NCBI GenBank assembly: GCA_010405405.1
Contig: MU004236.1
Location: 1,866,070-1,930,069, forward strand
Reading direction: 5' to 3'
Source of the DNA: Microthyrium microscopicum
Lineage: Eukaryota
DNA length: 64,000 nucleotides
Shown in pieces: positions 31,438 to 54,596 of this stretch (position 1 is its first letter; every line of letters starts with the position of its first letter). The translations under genes were made by a program, and so were the position numbers. The notes beneath the pieces are model-generated. The model saw nothing but the letters and a program-made list of their open reading frames with translations. It was not told the origin of the DNA and searched no databases.

Positions 31438-32439
31438 TGGGTTGGAGGATGGGATGGTGGTTGTTTGTGATGATGGGTTTTGGTGATTGGTGAATAATGG
31501 CTACTGGCTTTCGTATCTTGTTCTCATGTATATGGATAGGACAGCGCTTTGAAATTGAGCGGTTGCTAAATTTAACGCATGAAATGAAGGTTCGAGATGA
31601 GTTACTCCAGCCTTGTAAACTTGATATGTGCCAAATTTGCTGTTACGAAATTGCGTACACCGCTAACGAACGATTTTCTCCCTAACAAGAAACCTGCTAT
31701 CAACAATGGCAGATTCAAGCGATGTTCAGAGTACAGCTTGACAGATGCTCGGCTCGATACAATGCATGTGGTAATTGAGAAATGAAGCAGGTGATTTATT
31801 GGCACAAAATGTTGGCCAAGGCTTCGTGGTGCATCACTTGTTGCTGATGAAAACAGTCGAGAGCATCGCAATGCGTAACAAAGTGCAGCTGGATTTTATA
31901 CCGCATATGGTTTCAGTGGTTTGAGGAAATGTGAAGCTTTGAAGGGGAAAGTCATGCCAGCTTGATGCTTCGTGCATTTTGATCGTTTCATATGACTGGT
32001 TTTTAGCTCAGGCCACATGCCCGATGTGGTCTTCAAGAACGAAGATTTCATGAAAGTGACATGTCTGTAGGTCCGTTTTACCTACCTAGGTAGCATTGAT
32101 TTGCGATTTCTACTTGAAGTGCATTGGGAGCTAGAAGAGTGTCACCATACCAATCCATGATATATCTGATTATTGAAGACGGCACTCAGGAGACAGGACT
32201 GGGTGCTGAACCTCATAAGCCGCAGCATAACTCCTGGACTACTAATCAAGATTGAATCCACCGCCAGCCGTGAACAAACAAGACACTTTACAAGTATCCA
32301 CTACTTGCTTGGGAATATTTTGATTCCAAAGCTGGCGGGAGTGTTACCAGAACTCGATGTTGCCACACTACCGGTATCTAGTGCGTCCATCCATTTGGTA
32401 GCATCGTCAGAATCGCCCTTGTAACCATGGATTGAAGAT

Positions 32440-35400
32440 GGTAACCACTAAATATCCACAGCCTTTTTACTAAATATCCACAGGCCCTTTTACTAAATAT
32501 CCACAGCGCTAACAGATCCAGATATACTAACCCAAATAGGAAATAAATATAAATTATTAAGTATTATTTCATAGGTTAAACCAAAAACTAGTGCAAAATA
32601 TCAAAGTTTTTACTATAGATAAAGCCTACGAGATTAGTTTAGTAGATTAACTCCTATGATAGCAATTTTATACCTAAAATATGCCTCTAAAGAGATCTAT
32701 CTCTTCTGTATCCTATTACTATTTTTATATCCTCTTACATCTATTCTATATCCTATCTTAAAGCTATTTTTAGTAGTATTAGTAGTTATTATATAGAGGG
32801 TCCTAGTAGTCTAAAGGAAGGTTATTTAGTAGGTCTTCCTTACTTCTTTTATAGAAGTATTAATATTATAGTATCTTCTTCTTCTTATTATTCTTTATAT
32901 AGTCTTTCTTACTTCTATATAAAAGGAACTAGTATAATAGTAGTTAAAGTTATAGTAGTGCTATCTTATAAAGTTATCTTAGTAGTAGTAGTAGATGTTA
33001 GCAGAGGAATTAAAGCTAAAGCTACTCTAGAAGTAGCTAACTATTGCTCTAATCTTATAATCTAAGCCTATAGTTTAGCGTTCTTATTATCTACGATTTT
33101 AGTAGTTAGCTTCATAGATCGTTAAGGGCAAGCTTACTATAGATTAGCTGTAGGATTAGCTATAAGACTAGTAAGATCTACAATATCTGCCTCTATAGCT
33201 ATAATATTAACTTGACGTTACTTAGCGAGTAATTCTTCTTCTAAAATTAACTAATTATCCTATTTACCGTTAGCTACTTTAGCTATAGCTATAGTATCTA
33301 CTACTATAGTAGTTCTTCTAATAGGAAGTTTATATAAAGATAGAATTTAACCTATTAAAGCTTATAGACGTTAAGCCTATAATGCTAAAGAATATTTGCT
33401 AATAAATACCTATATTAGCGGTAGAATTTATAGAGAAGAAGTAGAAGCTTATTCTTTAAGTCTAATAATATATAGTAGTAGAGGAATATTACTAACTCTA
33501 AACTTAATTTAATTGTAGTACTAGTACGTATTAATATTAGTCTTTTAAAGCTACTATTTATTATTATAGAAGAGATATTCTTTAATTATATAGCTATAGG
33601 GTAATCTATAAATAGAATTAAAGTATTTAATATATTTTATTAGTAGTTCTTTACTTATAACCTCTCTTTTCTATTTATAATATTACTTTATAACCTCTTT
33701 TAAGACGTAAGTACTAATATAATAGTAGAATAAGGAAAGAAGAATAGGAAGATTCTTTTGCTTTAAAAGTACTAGATTCTTATTAAAATCCTTACTAACT
33801 TTAAGAATTAGACGCTTAATTTGCTCCTTAATAGCTTTAAGGATAATATTAACTATATAAAGTATATCTCCTATAGAATAGATTTATAACTTTAAAATAT
33901 AATAAAGACCCTCTAATAGTAATATTGTAGTACACTCGTAATGCTTAAATTTAAATAAGAATGTAAGGCATAATTAATCTTTAAATGGTATCTAGGTATT
34001 ATCTAAATATTTAATAAATCTATAACCCTAAGGATTATTAAATTGCTATTTTAAGGCGTTCTATACTTTATCTAGCTAAGTCTCTATTAGGGCGTCTATA
34101 ACTTATAAATTTATTAGTAAAATAACTATCTAAAAGAGGAAGATCTAGCTTACCTCTAGCTATATGTTATATACCTTATCTTATTTTTAATATATAGTAG
34201 ATTTAGCTATACGATTAAAAGCGTTAGTAATATTAAAGATATTATAAATATACTCTCTAACGTTCTCCTTATAGTAGTATTAATAGATTATTTAATAAGA
34301 AGGAATATAATCTTAAAGCGTATTCTTTAGCACTTTATAAGAATTAGTAAGAATAATATTTAGAAGCTTTATTATAGAACTAGGGCCTTAAATAACCTAA
34401 TTAAAAGCTTTAAGGGCCTACTAATATTCTTCTTCTAATTTCCTTGTTATAAAATAGAAGCTAACTAAGAAGTACTTATAAATAGCTATTCTTATACTAA
34501 TATAGAGTAGTAATATCTTATACTAATTAGTCTTATATATTAAATTAAAGAGTAAGATATTAGGATAAGCGTAATAGAGAGCAATCTACGCCTTTATAGT
34601 AATAAATAGGCTTCTTAAATAGCAATTATTAAGGCGTATTTTAAAAATAAACTCTTTATATTATTCTAATTTATTAAGAAGTATTTCTAAGAACGTATAG
34701 CTCCTTATTTACTCTAATCTTATAGTTTAGTAAGAGTTATAAATATTAGATATCTTAAGCTTTATTCTAGAGTATAAATTCTAAAGTTTAGTAAGAATCT
34801 CTTGCGAGTTAGTATAAGTTTTATATAACTCCTTAATTTTAGTATAAATATTAAAAAGTAGTATATCTTAGCGTTAAATAGAAGGAATAGAAGTAGGAAC
34901 TAAGGAAAGGTATAAATAGGAATCGCTATTAATAATAATCTTCTATAATAGCTCTCCTAGTAGAGTAGGATTATTAGTAAAGTATATATCTTAAAGATAT
35001 AGTTTAAAGTAATAACTATTCTTTCATAATTTAGCTTAATGAATGCTAATTAATTTAGAGATATAGATACTATATTTTAAGTATTTTAGATAAATATTTT
35101 AATAGTTAGTATTAGTACTAGCTAAGAGCAACTTTCTAGAGATTTAAAGTCTATAACTATACTCTTTCTTATATTTTTTATATATATTAATAGTATCTTG
35201 CTATATCTCGTATAGGATGTTTGTTAGTAGATCTTTAATAGAATCGTAATCGTTTATAGTAGTAGTAGTAGTTAAAAATTAGAGTAGTAGTAGTTAAAGA
35301 CTTAGAAGAAATTTAAGATATTATGGTAAAGAGGTGAAGTTAGATAATTTATACTAGTAAGTTATTTTAGTAAAATAATATTAATTTTAGGTTAAGATCT

Positions 35401-35534
35401 AGGGCTATGGCCCTAAGGCTAGCTATATTAGGTTAGTAGTAGGGTATCATATTTAGATCTATTAGCGCTATGGATATTTAGTAAAAGGGCCTGTAGATAT
35501 TTAGTAAAAGGGCTGTGGATATTTAGTGGTTACC
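32440..35534 (-). mobile_element. Mutator-like (MULE) DNA transposon, RIP-inactivated
   Basis: TIRs of ~95 bp starting GGTAACCACTAAATATCCACAG with three internal ACTAAATATCCACAG-type repeats. Perfect 9-bp TSD ATTGAAGAT (32431-32439 and 35535-35543). Minus-strand remnants KHYECTTILLLEGLYYILK (~33945-33890) and RLPYSY (~33615-33595) revert by transitions to MULE-like HYGxTTSxLEGLH and SWIM-type GLPCSH. Confidence 0.93.
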
Positions 35535-36208
35535 ATTGAAGATATAGAATTTGTGATGACAACAATTAGTGCGATTCGAAAATCAGGACAGAAAGCTCGG
35601 GCTCGAGCGCCGTCCTCCGTTCCTCGTCTCTTACGTCAACTTAGCGATGGTTTTCTGAGAGTAAGCTTTAATCGTGATAAGCTCTATGTGCAACTGATGG
35701 GGCCGATTGTCCCTTAGTAGAATGTTAGCAATGGAGAGATGAGATGAAGTAGAGAAAGCAATGTCTTGGCGGACGAAACAACTGTCTGTGCTTTTTGAAG
35801 TCAACTCCAACTTCGCGACGTGCCAAGCGCTGACAACACCAGTCCTTCGCTGCATTGGCTTGATACGAAATGATTAAGAACAATAGTAGACAACTGCACA
35901 AGATGTCAATAGCTATCGCGAGGACTGAGGATACGCGCGACTGAAGAGTCTCGAGCCTCGAGGTTTACCAGCTTCTCGCCAACAGGCTAGACTTGAGTAG
36001 TATCGAGTATCGACGATTTGACGTTGTCCATCAAGCTAGAACCCGGTCACAGTCAAGCCTTTGAGAGTTTCGTTTCAACCTTTCTTCCTACAAAACTTAG
36101 GACCAACTATTTGGCTCTAGGGAGGGCTCTGCGTTCATTGACACGATTTGTGCTCCGCTTGGTCAGACTCGAACGTCCTACCATAGCTTATCAGGAGCTG
36201 CAGTCAAT

Positions 36209-47392: not shown

Positions 47393-48335
47393 ATGGCCGC
47401 CCTCATCGCGCTCTCCGATATTCCCACCATCCCCGTCCTCTACAAAACCAAGTGGCTCACCGTCGTGCCCACTCCCTCTCGCACCCCAAACGCCGTCTTC
47501 AACTCCAAAATTGCCATCATTCGTCACGATATCACCCGCCTACAAGTAGATAGCATCGTCAACGCAGCCAACGACTCCCTCCTCGGCGGCGGTGGAGTCG
47601 ACGGCGCTATCCACCGCGCAGCTGGCCCACGACTCTTCGATGAGTGCGAAACCCTCAATGGCTGCGACACTGGTAGCGCAAAAATCACCAACGGATACAA
47701 GCTACCAGCGAAGAAGGTCATCCATGCAGTTGGACCCGTATATTTCCGCGAGAAGGGACGTGGTCGGCATGAAATATTGCTACGGGGCTGCTATCGCAAG
47801 AGTCTAGAGTTGGCGGAGCAGAATGGGCTGAAGAGTATTGCGTTCAGCGCGCTGAGTACGGGAGTGTATGGATATCCGAGTGGAGAGGCGGCGGATGCGG
47901 CGATTAGTGAGGTGCGGAATTTCTTCGAGGAAGGCAAAGGAAAGGACTTTGAGCGCGTCGTGTTTTGCAACTTCATGGAGAAGGATGAGAAGGCGTATCA
48001 GGCTACTATGAGGTATGGTGATATCTACTTTACGAGCTTTTAAACTAACCTTTGATAGCAAGTATTTCCCGGATGCCAAAGACGGTGAGGGCGAGAAGAC
48101 TGAGGCCGAGGGATCCAAGGCGCCGAAGGTCAAGTCAATGTTAGACGTGGAGCCGGAGGAGATTGCTAAAGAGCTTCCTGATGTTCCGAAAGACGAGCCA
48201 TCTGCTGCCAATACATCCGGTCTCAAATCAGGCGATGTTACTGACGACGACTGGGTGGACGTCGGTAAGGATACTACTGTTCCCAAGAAGGCCACTGTCG
48301 AGGACGTTGAGGATGAGGATAACAAAAAGCACTAG
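47393..48335 (+). CDS. MacroD-type macrodomain protein (O-acetyl-ADP-ribose deacetylase / mono-ADP-ribosylhydrolase)
   Basis: [40 protein letters not shown] and STGVYGYP. Intron ~48013-48058; acidic C-terminal tail. Confidence 0.93.
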
Positions 48336-48557: not shown

Positions 48558-50136
48558 CTACGAGTTTTCCAACACCACATCATCCAGGTTGATATGGTTA
48601 GGAGCTGCAGCAGCTTCATCTTCACTTCCTACACGTAATTGCGCATGTTCCTCCAAAACATGATTCAGTCCTTCCCTCTGTATACACTGACTAAACGCAA
48701 AGCTCTTCGCAGCACCATCCAACTCCTCCAAACTCGCTCCCTCAAACAATCTCGCAAACTCATCCTGTACAGCACCCGCCGTCCATATCTGCAACACCAA
48801 CCTCACAATCTGCCGATCTGTAGCCCATGGCGTCGGATACTGCTCCTTGCTCTCTGGTGCCTTTCTATCAATCCACTCCACCAACTGTCCCAATAGCCCC
48901 TCAATCTCCGGCGCCGGTCTACGACCCCACGCATCCAGTTGCATCTCCCTCTTGCGCTCCTGGAACGCTGCAATCCGCTGCATATACACGCTCTTGGGAT
49001 CACAGTATACCATTCCCTGGTATCCAATGTCCTTGTATAGCCAGATGCACCAGTGTATCTTATACCGATCGTATATCTTCAACTGTGCCGCTAAGAGATC
49101 ATAACGTGCCTGATTCACGCTCACTGCATCATCATCGCGCTCAGCGTCGGCGTAGACAGGGCCAAACTCGCCATTCCAGATCGGCACGCCGTGTTTATGC
49201 ATAAACTCCGCCTTTCTTAGAAACTGTCCTTCTAATTTCCTAACCTGCTCTTCCTTGCCCTCAAATCTCTCGCCCTTGGGAAAGCCCATACTGCTATAAT
49301 CATGCAGTGCATATACACAATTCGGCAGCACTCTATCGAAGCCGCGCCATTCCATCGCGAAGGTGTTGCCGTCCAGCCATAGTATGTGCTTTGAGTCGAT
49401 TGCGCGGATCCGCGGCTCGATGCGCTCGTAGAAGGCTGGGAGACGGACGTGTTGGGAATCGCACGGCTCATTGATGAGGTTGTAGCCGGCGATCCATGGA
49501 TTGGAGGCATAGTGCGTGGCGAGCTGTTCCCAGAGCCAGATGGCGCGGTCTTGGAAGTCTCGGTGGTCCCAGAAAGAGGCGTGGGAGGTTAGGTTGTCGG
49601 AGTGCCAGTCTGGGTTTTGGCCTCCGGGAAGAGCGTGGAGGTCGAGGATTGTGTAGATGTTGTGTTTGGCGCACTAGCTCTTGTCAGAAGTGATAGAAAC
49701 GGAAATTGAGTAAGGCTTACGAGCTCGATTACGCGGTCGAGATGTTTGAAGCCGGCTTCTTTGAGGACGCGAGGATTCATATCGTCTTCAAAGTGGTGAT
49801 AGTTGAAGCCTACACGTAAACAGTTGAGACCTTTGGAAGCGAAGAATCTGGCATCATCTTCGGTAAAGAAATATTCGAGGAATTTGTCAAAGAAGAAGTC
49901 GTATTTCTCTTGGCCGAGAACTTTGAGCATGGCTGCTCTGTGCTGAGTTTCGTGGCCTGGGAAGCCAGTGATGAAATTCTCCATGCTATGTTCAAGTCAG
50001 GATTTATTCTGTCATGTTCTATCAATGAGAGGACTTACTTCATCCATCCACCCAGTCCAGCTCCTCGGAGAATTACTGGCTTGTCGTCCTCTCCTACGAC
50101 TTGGGTGCCTTTCACGCGAAGAAATCCAGATGCCAT
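48558..50136 (-). CDS. Glycoside hydrolase family 5 (intracellular type)
   Basis: MASGFLRVKG..LRGAGLGGWM, NMENFITGFPG, DLHALPGGQNPDWHSDN, GYNLINEP (acid/base) and WNGEFGP (nucleophile). Two introns. Confidence 0.93.
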
Positions 50137-50667: not shown

Positions 50668-51621
50668 TCAATCAATCTCCATGGCGTCCGCTCGCACTTG
50701 ACCTTGTGTGCCCGCTTGCGCTTCGACTTCCATTTGACTCTCTATATCTTTTTGGCCTTCTGCATCCATTTCATCTTGCACCTCTTCTTCTGCATCTTCA
50801 ATCTCATCCCATTCGAAGCCGATGTCTCGAAGCAGAGCAGGATCATCCCTATGAGGAAGAGAGCCCAAAATAAGCACCTTACCACCTTCGCGCTTCAGTG
50901 TATGCACATGCACTCCCTTGAGAGTACGCTTAAGCTCTGCCACTTTATCTGCTGACGCCTGCCGAACAAGCTCATCATCGTCGCCTAAAGGGGGTAGGTA
51001 TCTACCACATAGCATGACTTCAACGAACCCTTTTTGAAAGAAGCAACGGTGACCCTGCAATTCCCACGGAATCCAAGTTCCCGGACCTTTTCCTAACGCC
51101 CCTGGCTGCGGATTACATTCACATTCCTCCCGAACGCATGCATTGCAGACTGACATACTATCGCACTCGCGCCCATTCTGCTGACAAGCTACACAAGGAC
51201 GAGCGCGCATGACGACGTAGTTGCCAATGTACTCGATGTGGATTTTCTCGCGGCCGCCATGAGCCGGGCGCATAATTACTAGGCGACTGGCTTCTGAGTC
51301 GGTGCTGAGCTTAGTCTGCTGGTCGAGGCCGAGAAGAGTTGATTTGTAGCCTATGTCCGCTGCCTCAATGCGGTAGTGCAGTATTACAAAGAAGACGATG
51401 TAGCTCGCGTCTGGGTTGCATAGTTGTTGTTCTTCTGGAGACATATCTTCCAGGGGCTGAAGATTGAGGACTGTATGGAAAGCTGCTTTGTTGTATACGT
51501 TCTTGTTGCGGGTCTGTCTTCGGAGGACGGCAGGACTAGGTTTGTAGAAGTTGCGTAGAAAGGAGGTGCGTTGGCCTGTGCTCTTGACGACTTGGTCTTC
51601 TGGGCGGATGATGATATGCAT
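50668..51621 (-). CDS. Orphan protein with central Cys6 (Zn2Cys6-like) motif, paralog 1
   Basis: Intronless 317-aa ORF containing CVACQQNGRECDSMSVCNACVREECEC (C-x2-C-x6-C-x5-C-x2-C-x6-C). Colinear similarity to the adjacent ORF; acidic tail. Confidence 0.8.
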   Translation of the reverse strand: MHIIIRPEDQVVKSTGQRTSFLRNFYKPSPAVLRRQTRNKNVYNKAAFHTVLNLQPLEDMSPEEQQLCNPDASYIVFFVILHYRIEAADIGYKSTLLGLDQQTKLSTDSEASRLVIMRPAHGGREKIHIEYIGNYVVMRARPCVACQQNGRECDSMSVCNACVREECECNPQPGALGKGPGTWIPWELQGHRCFFQKGFVEVMLCGRYLPPLGDDDELVRQASADKVAELKRTLKGVHVHTLKREGGKVLILGSLPHRDDPALLRDIGFEWDEIEDAEEEVQDEMDAEGQKDIESQMEVEAQAGTQGQVRADAMEID

Positions 51622-52029
51622 GGTGGTGAGATCTCAGAAAACGATAATACGAGAACGTTGACGGGTACTGGATTGGCTGTGCAGAAACTGGTGGGATTAG
51701 CGAGGAAAATGAATCAGAGGAGCCTGAGAAAACTACAGCTTAAATGCAGACTGATATAGCTAAGGAAGTCACTGGTATGGCTGCTCACCTTGATATCGGT
51801 GACGGGCCACGGCTGTCGAGGTGTCAGCCCAGTAGATGGGTGTTGGTGCATGAATACAAAGAAAACATGAGAACATCACTTTGACTGTCAGAATATACAT
51901 AGCGCTATGATAGATAGTGTTGCCCATTACAAAACTGACACCGAAAATCAAGAACATCGAGATACCAACATATGAGAGAAAGAAGATGTTTTTCTTAAAA
52001 CCGCGCGATGTTTGCTGAATGCAGGCAAA

Positions 52030-53043
52030 CTAAGCGACAGAATCTTCGTCCATTGGGGTGGCGGTGTCTAAACCTTCTAACATCGGCTGTTCGTCAACTG
52101 GAGCGTCCTCTACTTCCTCCGTAATATCATGAACCCTTTTCTTGCCTTTGCCCTGCTTACGGGGTGTTGGTTCAAGCATGGTAAGTGTTCCCTCTACAGC
52201 CTTGTCCCAGTCAAAGTTCAACTTCTCCAACAGGTCAGGATCTGACACTCCCGGAAGGCTGGACATAATGAGTACTTTGGAGTATTCCCGCTTCAAGGTG
52301 TGGCGCTTTAGTCCTTCTAGCACATGTTTGAGAGCGTCGTCGGCACTGGATCCCAGCTGTGGCGCATCTGCCGCGCATGGAGGAAGAGTTTCATCTGCTA
52401 GGACCACAGGCGGATTCGGAGATTCTGCCTTGAAGTGCTTCTTGCGAAAGCACGAATGGCTAGTGATAGTGGCCAACTTGGCTACATCTAAAGCGCCAGA
52501 TTGAGGCACACATGTAGTATTGCTTTGGTAGCATGGCTGGCAAGGGACTCTGCTATCACAGCTCGCTGGGAAACCAGACCGATCGCAATGAACGCATGGC
52601 CTGGCTCGCCATAGCACGAAATTTCCGTAGTATTGGACATGCAGTGCCTCTCGAGTTGTCGAAGCGGGTCGATCAATGATCAAACGTCGGCCATCAGCCT
52701 CGACTCTGAGATTACAAGTCGGATCCAGAGCTAGTATTGCAGGTTTGTACTCGCCAACATTGTCGTCTTTCCCGTCGTCGTAGTTGAAAACCACCACGAA
52801 GGTCACTTGATGACACTTCGGAATCACAATGCTATCAGAGCTGCTTGTGCCGAATAGGCTGAGGTTCAGTACGTTTCGAAAGCAGTCAGGCTTTCTTTGT
52901 CTAGGTCCGGATCTTTGAGGTGGTGATCCTAAATCTATCTCGTTTTGAGTGGGATTGGACCACTTCTTCAAACGTGAAAGACGACCAGATCCTCCTTTTA
53001 CCACAACTACCTGATCTCTGGGCTCAATCACATTTTCGGCCAT
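52030..53043 (-). CDS. Orphan protein with central Cys6 (Zn2Cys6-like) motif, paralog 2
   Basis: Intronless 337-aa ORF containing CVHCDRSGFPASCDSRVPCQPCYQSNTTC (C-x2-C-x8-C-x5-C-x2-C-x6-C), an NLS-like PRKQGKGKKR and an acidic tail. Confidence 0.8.
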   Translation of the reverse strand: MAENVIEPRDQVVVVKGGSGRLSRLKKWSNPTQNEIDLGSPPQRSGPRQRKPDCFRNVLNLSLFGTSSSDSIVIPKCHQVTFVVVFNYDDGKDDNVGEYKPAILALDPTCNLRVEADGRRLIIDRPASTTREALHVQYYGNFVLWRARPCVHCDRSGFPASCDSRVPCQPCYQSNTTCVPQSGALDVAKLATITSHSCFRKKHFKAESPNPPVVLADETLPPCAADAPQLGSSADDALKHVLEGLKRHTLKREYSKVLIMSSLPGVSDPDLLEKLNFDWDKAVEGTLTMLEPTPRKQGKGKKRVHDITEEVEDAPVDEQPMLEGLDTATPMDEDSVA

Positions 53044-53752
53044 CTCGAAGAAACTGCAGTGAATCTTTGGATGTCAATGCTTTGATTAATTTGCACTTAC
53101 TGACAGAGAGAAACGAAGTTATCTGGGCGTAAAAGTGACTGTAAAGTGTTAAGCGCAAGGAGCAAGAAGTGGACGATGAACGAGGCTCTTATACACAAGA
53201 CCGGGATGAAGTTTGCGTTATTTGGTCCTTCTATTATGTACAGGTGACCCAACCGTATGATATATTAGAAGCATCAGCTTGTTGCGGTATTTGAGAAGGC
53301 AGGCTGGTGCGACCAAATGTTGACATTTCAGTCTTTCAAAATGTTGTGAATATTGATTTAGAGTTTTTCCAATTAGATTTGAAATATTTAGAGAGCTTCC
53401 TTTTTCAATCCCGGCCTCCAAAATCTTGCTCAACTCTACTTCATTCGTTTGACACATCAAAAGCAACCGCCGGAGATTTGGCACTCCCAAGCATTAGTTG
53501 AGTTATTGCAGGATTGATCATGGAATCCATTAAGTCAAAATTGCCATTGTCCAGATTTCTGAAAGTTAGAATACTTTAGTTGAAGCTACGAAAAGTATTG
53601 GAAAAGCTATCAGGCTGAGCGCAAGGCTGACATAACACAAACTCCATGCCACATCCAAACAAACAAGCACTCAACAAGCTCAACCGAAAAAAAATACTCT
53701 CTACCCACAATCTTGACAAGTAAAAATAATAATAGAATTAGCAAAAAGTTCA

Positions 53753-53886
53753 CCACACATCCGAGATGTGTGGCTATGAAAATCAGGCGACCTGATTTTA
53801 CGATGCAAACGGGGCTCGAACCTGGAGGTTGTCATTGCCACTTCTTCGTTAGACTTGAGCAGGAGTTGTCTCTTAATTACGCATCG
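53753..53886. other. Cluster of two perfect 9-bp hairpins and a tRNA-like fold
   Basis: CCACACATC-CGA-GATGTGTGG (53753-53773) and AAAATCAGG-CGA-CCTGATTTT (53779-53799), then CGATGC...GCATCG (53801-53886) enclosing a minus-strand GGTTCGAGCC B-box. Confidence 0.55.
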
Positions 53887-54596
53887 GGTTAGACTATCTG
53901 ACTCGTTCGAGATTAGACATCAGATAATAACCGTCAATTGCCACCCTTATATTGTACCTAAATGTTAGTAGATATTTGCAAATTGCCATGCTTTGGCATA
54001 TATACAGCAATTGCGAATCACGTTCATTTCCCCAAGATCTTTCCGAACTGTTCGTCACACTATAAATGTAATTCTGTTTATTCCTTCTCCTTTTCAATAA
54101 AGTTAGTCCCTAAGTTACAGAAAAATGCTCAAGATAAATTGAAAGTCATGATGATTCTTTACCGTTATCGTGTGTCTTTGCTCACCCGCCAAAAGATTTA
54201 TTGCAAAACTACCTAATTCAATTTACTCATCTCAAGTCCGCTGTGGAGTGGAAACGAACAATTAAAGATTACAATTGAATTAAAAACCTTTCTATCACTT
54301 TTGATTATACGAAGAGTCCGAGATTACCTGTTTGGCCTATTCCATTGGTTTGCCATAGCCATCGACTCTGTACGGTCTCTCCATTGTTGTGGCTTTCATA
54401 CACACACTACGATTATCAATCTCCAATTTCAACCAGCCAGATAGAGGCCAGCGTATCAATGGCGTATGCTCAATGTAGAATCTCTCCATGGTACCAGGCA
54501 ACGAATGGGAAATCCTTTCACCAAGGTGTATTCTTATTGATTTTAGAGGTAAAAGTAAAGTATATACAGCGAATCACCCTACGAAAACATCATAAC

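Follow-up and report, generated by a model that had tools for sequence, protein, structure and literature searches.

A tandem gene pair of Microthyrium microscopicum with a mid-protein Zn2Cys6-derived cluster, possibly members of a rare family of atypical nuclear regulators

What kind of protein keeps the six cysteines of a fungal zinc cluster in the middle of its chain, within a region that matches no listed family? This question is raised by two neighbouring genes in the window, i.e., the whole 64,000-nucleotide stretch of Microthyrium microscopicum DNA that was analysed. Gene 1 (P0001, 317 aa) lies at 50668..51621 and gene 2 (P0002, 337 aa) at 52030..53043; they are in tandem on the minus strand with 408 bp between them, and both reading frames are intact, as an earlier note on this DNA had described. 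The colinearity claimed there was confirmed by pairwise alignment: BLASTP joined residues 4-273 of gene 1 to residues 5-281 of gene 2 over 286 columns with 99 identities (35%, E 3e-44), and all of the shared blocks listed earlier were present. The description of the genes as intronless held for the coding regions but not for the 5' leader of gene 2, where a candidate 47-nt intron (GTAAGT..CAG, 53054..53100, minus strand) is predicted from sequence, its size being like that of the introns in nearby RNA contigs (46-53 nt). The GC content, GC3 and RIP indices of the pair are like those of neighbouring genes. On one side these neighbours are a SPO71-like PH gene, a macro-domain gene and a GH5 gene, on the other a GDSL-like gene, and the surroundings are ordinary fungal DNA. 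The RNA contigs reveal three short introns of 46-53 nt in the macro-domain and GH5 genes (window 48011-48058, 49674-49720 and 49986-50038), and the GH5 transcript starts about 430 bp beyond the stop codon of gene 1. An AT-rich block farther away (window 32001-36000, GC about 0.30) is probably a RIP-mutated repeat.

The pair described in the earlier note does not stand alone. Searches of the genome with each of the four paralogs returned the same set of at least four copies: the pair, P0003 (contig C12, 423 aa) and P0004 (contig C14, 324 aa). Both additional copies are single uninterrupted ORFs at single-gene loci and are listed as hypothetical proteins of M. microscopicum; P0004 carries the UniRef label Zn(2)-C6 protein. 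The core identity is 28-37% in all six paralog pairs, so the four are about equally diverged. Their tree remains unresolved and star-like and supports no two copies as sisters, the tandem copies included. Identity at third positions is 26-32%, near chance, compared with 45-58% at first and second positions, and pN is 0.47-0.52 against a pS of 0.72-0.82, a contrast that the protein-guided alignment exaggerates somewhat. Because the silent sites are saturated while four frames of 317-423 codons stay open, these values mean that the four genes are under purifying selection, in agreement with what had been proposed for the two divergent ORFs of the pair. No DNA similarity was found between the flanks of the family loci. 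A second orphan accompanies a family member on C14: a 326-aa ORF without a Pfam match (L010:5609-6589, minus strand) shares the strand of P0004 and stops 169 bp upstream of it.

The proteins share one layout. A basic N-terminus with a GR-x-S/T-x-L motif (net charge +3 to +7 in all four paralogs) is followed by a predicted six-strand beta-meander (gene 2 residues 82-146; 52606..52800, minus strand) that is conserved in relatives outside the genome, and then by the six-cysteine cluster. After it, about 100 residues are predicted to be ordered. They include a conserved C-terminal segment (gene 2 residues 212-282; 52198..52410, minus strand) composed of a V-V-x-x-x-x-L-P-P strand, a helix, an H-T-x-K motif (H-T-L-K in gene 2) with a beta-hairpin, and L-P-x-x-x-D. 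The acidic tails noted before are present in all four paralogs (-8 to -43). That of gene 1 comprises 44 aa with a net charge of -14 (50671..50802, minus strand), and the low-confidence tail of gene 2 (52033..52197, minus strand; net -8) has an NLS-like basic run, RKQGKGKKR, recognised by eye, before it turns acidic. The beta-rich region of no assigned family that had been placed around the cluster is likewise found in two structure models of modest confidence (pTM 0.56 and 0.51). Fold searches with these low-confidence models gave no clear match to the flanking domain, and Pfam searches at E up to 10 gave no enzyme family, no PF04082 and no PF11951.

A profile of the four paralogs matched nine proteins among 1.84 billion representatives, i.e., three self matches, four relatives (P0005, P0006, P0008 and the fragment P0007) and two ordinary multi-cluster proteins. 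The latter two were dropped; neither the beta segment nor the C-terminal segment alone matches them. Five outside relatives are full-length (P0005, P0006, P0008, P0011 and P0013), all of them environmental records from JGI/IMG or Logan. The five are distant, and they keep the whole architecture of GR-x-S/T motif, beta-meander, six-cysteine cluster and LPP/H-T-x-K segment. Comparison of the profiles of two sub-alignments gave a probability of 99.1% over 226 columns, which extends beyond the cluster. The beta segment alone scored 20.4 bits against P0005 and the C-terminal segment alone 12.6 bits against P0006, neither score being reached by any of 200 shuffles. The remaining pairs of segment and relative were weaker (0 to 7 of 200 shuffles), and with the N-terminal segment alone the relatives were not set apart clearly from shuffles, 6 to 107 of 200 reaching the score. 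No description of the family was found in the literature, which was available in part. By these searches the family is small, rare and restricted in distribution, as the earlier note had expected; the further expectation of a lineage-restricted zinc-binding fold stood for the rarity but not for the fold, since the cluster itself belongs to a known type.

Zn(II)2Cys6 clusters follow the consensus C-x2-C-x6-C-x5-12-C-x2-C-x6-8-C. The cluster of gene 1 (C143-C169; 51115..51195, minus strand) fits it exactly (C-x2-C-x6-C-x5-C-x2-C-x6-C), and that of gene 2 (C150-C178; 52510..52596, minus strand) has all six cysteines but eight residues in loop 1 (C-x2-C-x8-C-x5-C-x2-C-x6-C). The previously noted spacing, x8 included, is therefore correct for both proteins, and so are the mid-protein position (first cysteine at residue 143 of 317 and 150 of 337) and the scarcity of basic residues, loop 1 containing one in each gene (QQNGRE and DRSGFPAS). 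The six cysteines are invariant in all nine full-length members, as is an arginine four residues before the first of them. The best PDB matches of the family profile are all Zn2Cys6 proteins, namely Pho7 (E 1e-4), Leu3 (0.003), then Cep3, Ppr1, Put3, Lac9 and Gal4, which indicates that the cluster descends from the known Zn2Cys6 module and does not represent a new zinc fold. At the PF00172 gathering cut-off of 21 bits no member was accepted: gene 1, P0003 and P0004 had no match, gene 2 scored 12.5 bits and the outside relatives 14.6-19.6 bits. In the usual layout the cluster is near a terminus and precedes a coiled coil and a middle-homology domain. The coiled coil after the cluster is also described in the available text of a study of Pho7 (PMC6265462). 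The family departs from this layout, with its cluster mid-protein and PF04082 and PF11951 absent.

For comparison, PF00172 matches of the same genome were used; 133 were found, 70 examined, and 41 were intact in one frame (30/30 of the top-scoring and 11/40 of the lower-scoring, the remaining 29 being not scorable). In this set, which was picked with the Pfam model and so leans to canonical loops, loop 1 had six residues in 41/41 and K, R or H at position 4 in 40/41. In the family, loop 1 has six to nine residues, seven to nine in four of the nine members, and position 4 of the five six-residue loops is G, N, S, S and G. The net charge of the cluster is -3 in gene 1 and 0 in gene 2, and -3 to 0 over the four paralogs, versus +1 to +9 in 30 controls. 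According to the available text of the Pho7 study, loop position 4 supplies the base contact in CGG reading (Gal4 Lys18, Pho7 Asn299 and a histidine of Put3), and in all solved Zn2Cys6 domains two main-chain carbonyls also read CGG (PMC6265462). Both genes of the pair have glycine at this position, which cannot make a side-chain base contact because it has no side chain. Judging from the alignment, the pair genes have lost the canonical CGG-reading residue of loop 1, although the main-chain carbonyl contacts would survive a glycine. This loss is not universal in the family, since P0003 and P0004 have asparagine at position 4, P0006 has arginine there, and in P0005 an arginine occupies the corresponding place when residues are counted from the third cysteine.

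We hypothesize, with a probability of roughly 45%, that the family consists of atypical nuclear regulators with a structural zinc cluster and not of ordinary transcription factors. The former is likelier because the Zn2Cys6 module has lost its reading residue and sits in an unclassified domain. On the other hand, the proteins could be sequence-specific factors in the manner of Pho7, acting as monomers whose cluster docks in the major groove of DNA by main-chain contacts, with the meander and the C-terminal segment giving a new specificity and the acidic tail serving for activation. The best solved relative is indeed a monomer whose flanking segments read 14 bp, as the available text has it (PMC6265462), and the asparagine in two of the four paralogs, the invariant arginine before the cluster and the acidic tails would all suit such a factor. 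The lengthened loops, the neutral to negative clusters and the glycine in both pair genes argue against it, and we regard it as possible but doubtful.

Upstream of gene 2 by about 700 bp, and in the same orientation, lies a copy (53735..54010, minus strand) of a noncoding RNA-like gene with TATA, A-box-like and B-box-like motifs, hairpins and a T-run. Contigs of an RNA-type run pile up at 53741-54014, and contigs of this type cover variants of the RNA-like gene, running past the T-run into the flanks. The genome contains 14 copies of about 235 nt with 67-91% identity, the others being L051-L059 and L065-L068. In ten aligned copies a TATA precedes a conserved start by about 30 nt, and after it come A-box-like and B-box-like motifs (called against the box consensus), a tRNA-like core, two hairpins and a T-run. 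Most of the model is covered by the four weakest copies, too. There was no match to an Rfam family or to a tRNA (Rfam, ARAGORN), and the evidence for structure is modest (z -0.65; two-sided change at 4/62 pairs). The copies are predicted to form an undescribed, Pol III-like gene family. The 5S rRNA genes found in the genome, at least seven, are all dispersed and fewer than these 14 copies. A candidate 18-nt motif with up to 3 mismatches was seen near six of the ten copies and also just after the SPO71-like gene (window 53613 and 46945; L053:1381, L055:1048, L057:1410, L058:1200 and L059:1374). A putative vWA/DUF2828-type gene (L056:2-862) ends near one copy. Such domains occur in Ro60-like proteins, but this one case in nine is probably due to chance.

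The top-scoring of the other RNA-like copies is about 400 bp downstream of P0004, also in the same orientation, so that a copy is found within 700 bp of family genes at two of the three loci. The chance of the second adjacency is 0.001-0.007, a post hoc value. This neighbourhood would be expected if the genes were a selfish or conflict family (meiotic driver, suppressor or incompatibility factor) spreading by recombination at dispersed Pol III-like genes, for which there is a precedent in Schizosaccharomyces octosporus, where 72 of 83 wtf genes adjoin 5S genes according to the available text (PMC9562144). The very patchy distribution (six non-self matches in 1.84 billion representatives, four of them true relatives) and the rapid divergence point in the same direction. 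However, the genome searches with the four paralogs, whose counts are lower bounds, found no young duplicates, fragments or pseudogenes, and the synonymous sites are saturated. Moreover, no poison/antidote arrangement is visible, and the P0003 locus on C12 has no RNA-like copy within about 4 kb. Twelve of the 14 RNA-like copies are without a family gene, because the family has only three loci. The observed arrangement would also result if an older array P0004-RNA-gene 2-gene 1 had been broken up by a single rearrangement through two RNA copies. A selfish origin is therefore considered unlikely. The bolder combination, in which a new composite fold (Zn2Cys6 in a beta/alpha domain) belongs to a conflict family of the sexual cycle that disperses at, or works with, the 14-copy Pol III RNA, is quite improbable; if true, it would provide a filamentous-fungus parallel to wtf at 5S rDNA, with a new protein and a new RNA.

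In the nine full-length members (numbered as in gene 2) the first Met, Phe82, Arg146, the six cysteines, Leu220, Pro222, His248, Pro264 and Asp268 are invariant, so that His248 and Asp268, within the H-T-x-K and L-P-x-x-x-D motifs, are the only invariant polar residues beyond the cluster region. These two could equally mark a metal or catalytic site, and the proteins would then be small enzymes or metal-binding proteins whose cluster only stabilises the fold. Two such residues are few, no enzyme family was matched in Pfam, and the second model gives the segment low confidence (pLDDT below 50 at residues 244-266); we judge this explanation very unlikely. The weakest proposal is that the two proteins work only together, as a heterodimer or two-gene module, or that protein and neighbouring RNA form a module: the tandem arrangement, the adjacent RNA-like gene at two of three loci and the clustered heterodimeric pair Yna1/Yna2 (PMC4559421, as far as its available text goes) speak for it, but the family genes at the other two loci are single, none of the four paralogs has a supported sister and the flanks share no DNA similarity, so that the module suggested by the earlier note is highly improbable.

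The atypical-regulator reading can be worded as follows. Genes 1 and 2 are old tandem paralogs in a small fungal family that evolves fast, and its members would be single-domain nuclear proteins, for which we infer zinc binding, nuclear location and a regulatory role. The ancestral Zn2Cys6 cluster would have been kept as a two-zinc structural core, embedded between the beta-meander and the conserved LPP/H-T-x-K segment, and would not read CGG by the canonical loop-1 side chain. Regulation of transcription or chromatin is the most likely role. Any contact with nucleic acid or a partner would fall to the flanking domain and to the GR-x-S/T motif of the basic N-terminus; the acidic tail would recruit or chaperone partners. 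The family copies probably act singly, and their movement may have been aided by the dispersed Pol III-like genes.

Among known systems, Yna1/Yna2 of Hansenula polymorpha likewise are two clustered Zn2Cys6 paralogs; these two bind to a defined DNA motif within a cluster of pathway genes, as given in the available text (PMC4559421), whereas the neighbours of our pair (GH5, GDSL-like) share no evident pathway. The wtf drivers of S. octosporus and S. osmophilus resemble the family in being lineage-restricted and multi-copy and in a possible link to dispersed Pol III-type genes, here next to two of three loci. They have no sequence relation to it, and the family differs in its only four old copies, its intronless ORFs, the lack of any sign of poison/antidote forms and an RNA gene other than 5S, the 5S genes found lying elsewhere. 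If the RNA link were causal, the family would provide a second example of fast-evolving fungal genes that spread at Pol III genes. Pho7 of S. pombe (PDB 6E33, 6O19) is similar in having a residue other than lysine at loop position 4, and according to the available text it gains extra specificity from flanking segments (PMC6265462). The match to Pho7, however, spans only about 35 cluster residues, and Pho7 keeps the Asn299 and Lys300 contacts and a basic loop, neither of which the pair has. With the Zn(II)2Cys6 factors at large (PF00172; Gal4, Leu3, Put3, Ppr1) the family shares the cluster order of the six cysteines, the arginine before the first of them, C-D after loop 1 and P-C-x-x-C. It differs in its sub-threshold Pfam scores, mid-protein position, loop 1 of six to nine residues, glycine at the base-reading position of the pair, absence of PF04082 and PF11951, and a conserved domain of no listed family. 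Since it falls short on the cut-off, the loop and the layout, we do not count it among the canonical Zn2Cys6 transcription factors. A Zn2Cys6 cluster is taken to be a DNA-binding domain that reads CGG, and proteins with one are annotated automatically as transcription factors, which is what UniRef does for P0004. The rarity of the family limits its general importance until a function is shown. A family in which all six cysteines are retained, the reading residue is gone and an unclassified domain surrounds the cluster would nevertheless show that this module has been reused as a scaffold, and the flanking domain would supply a new domain to solve.
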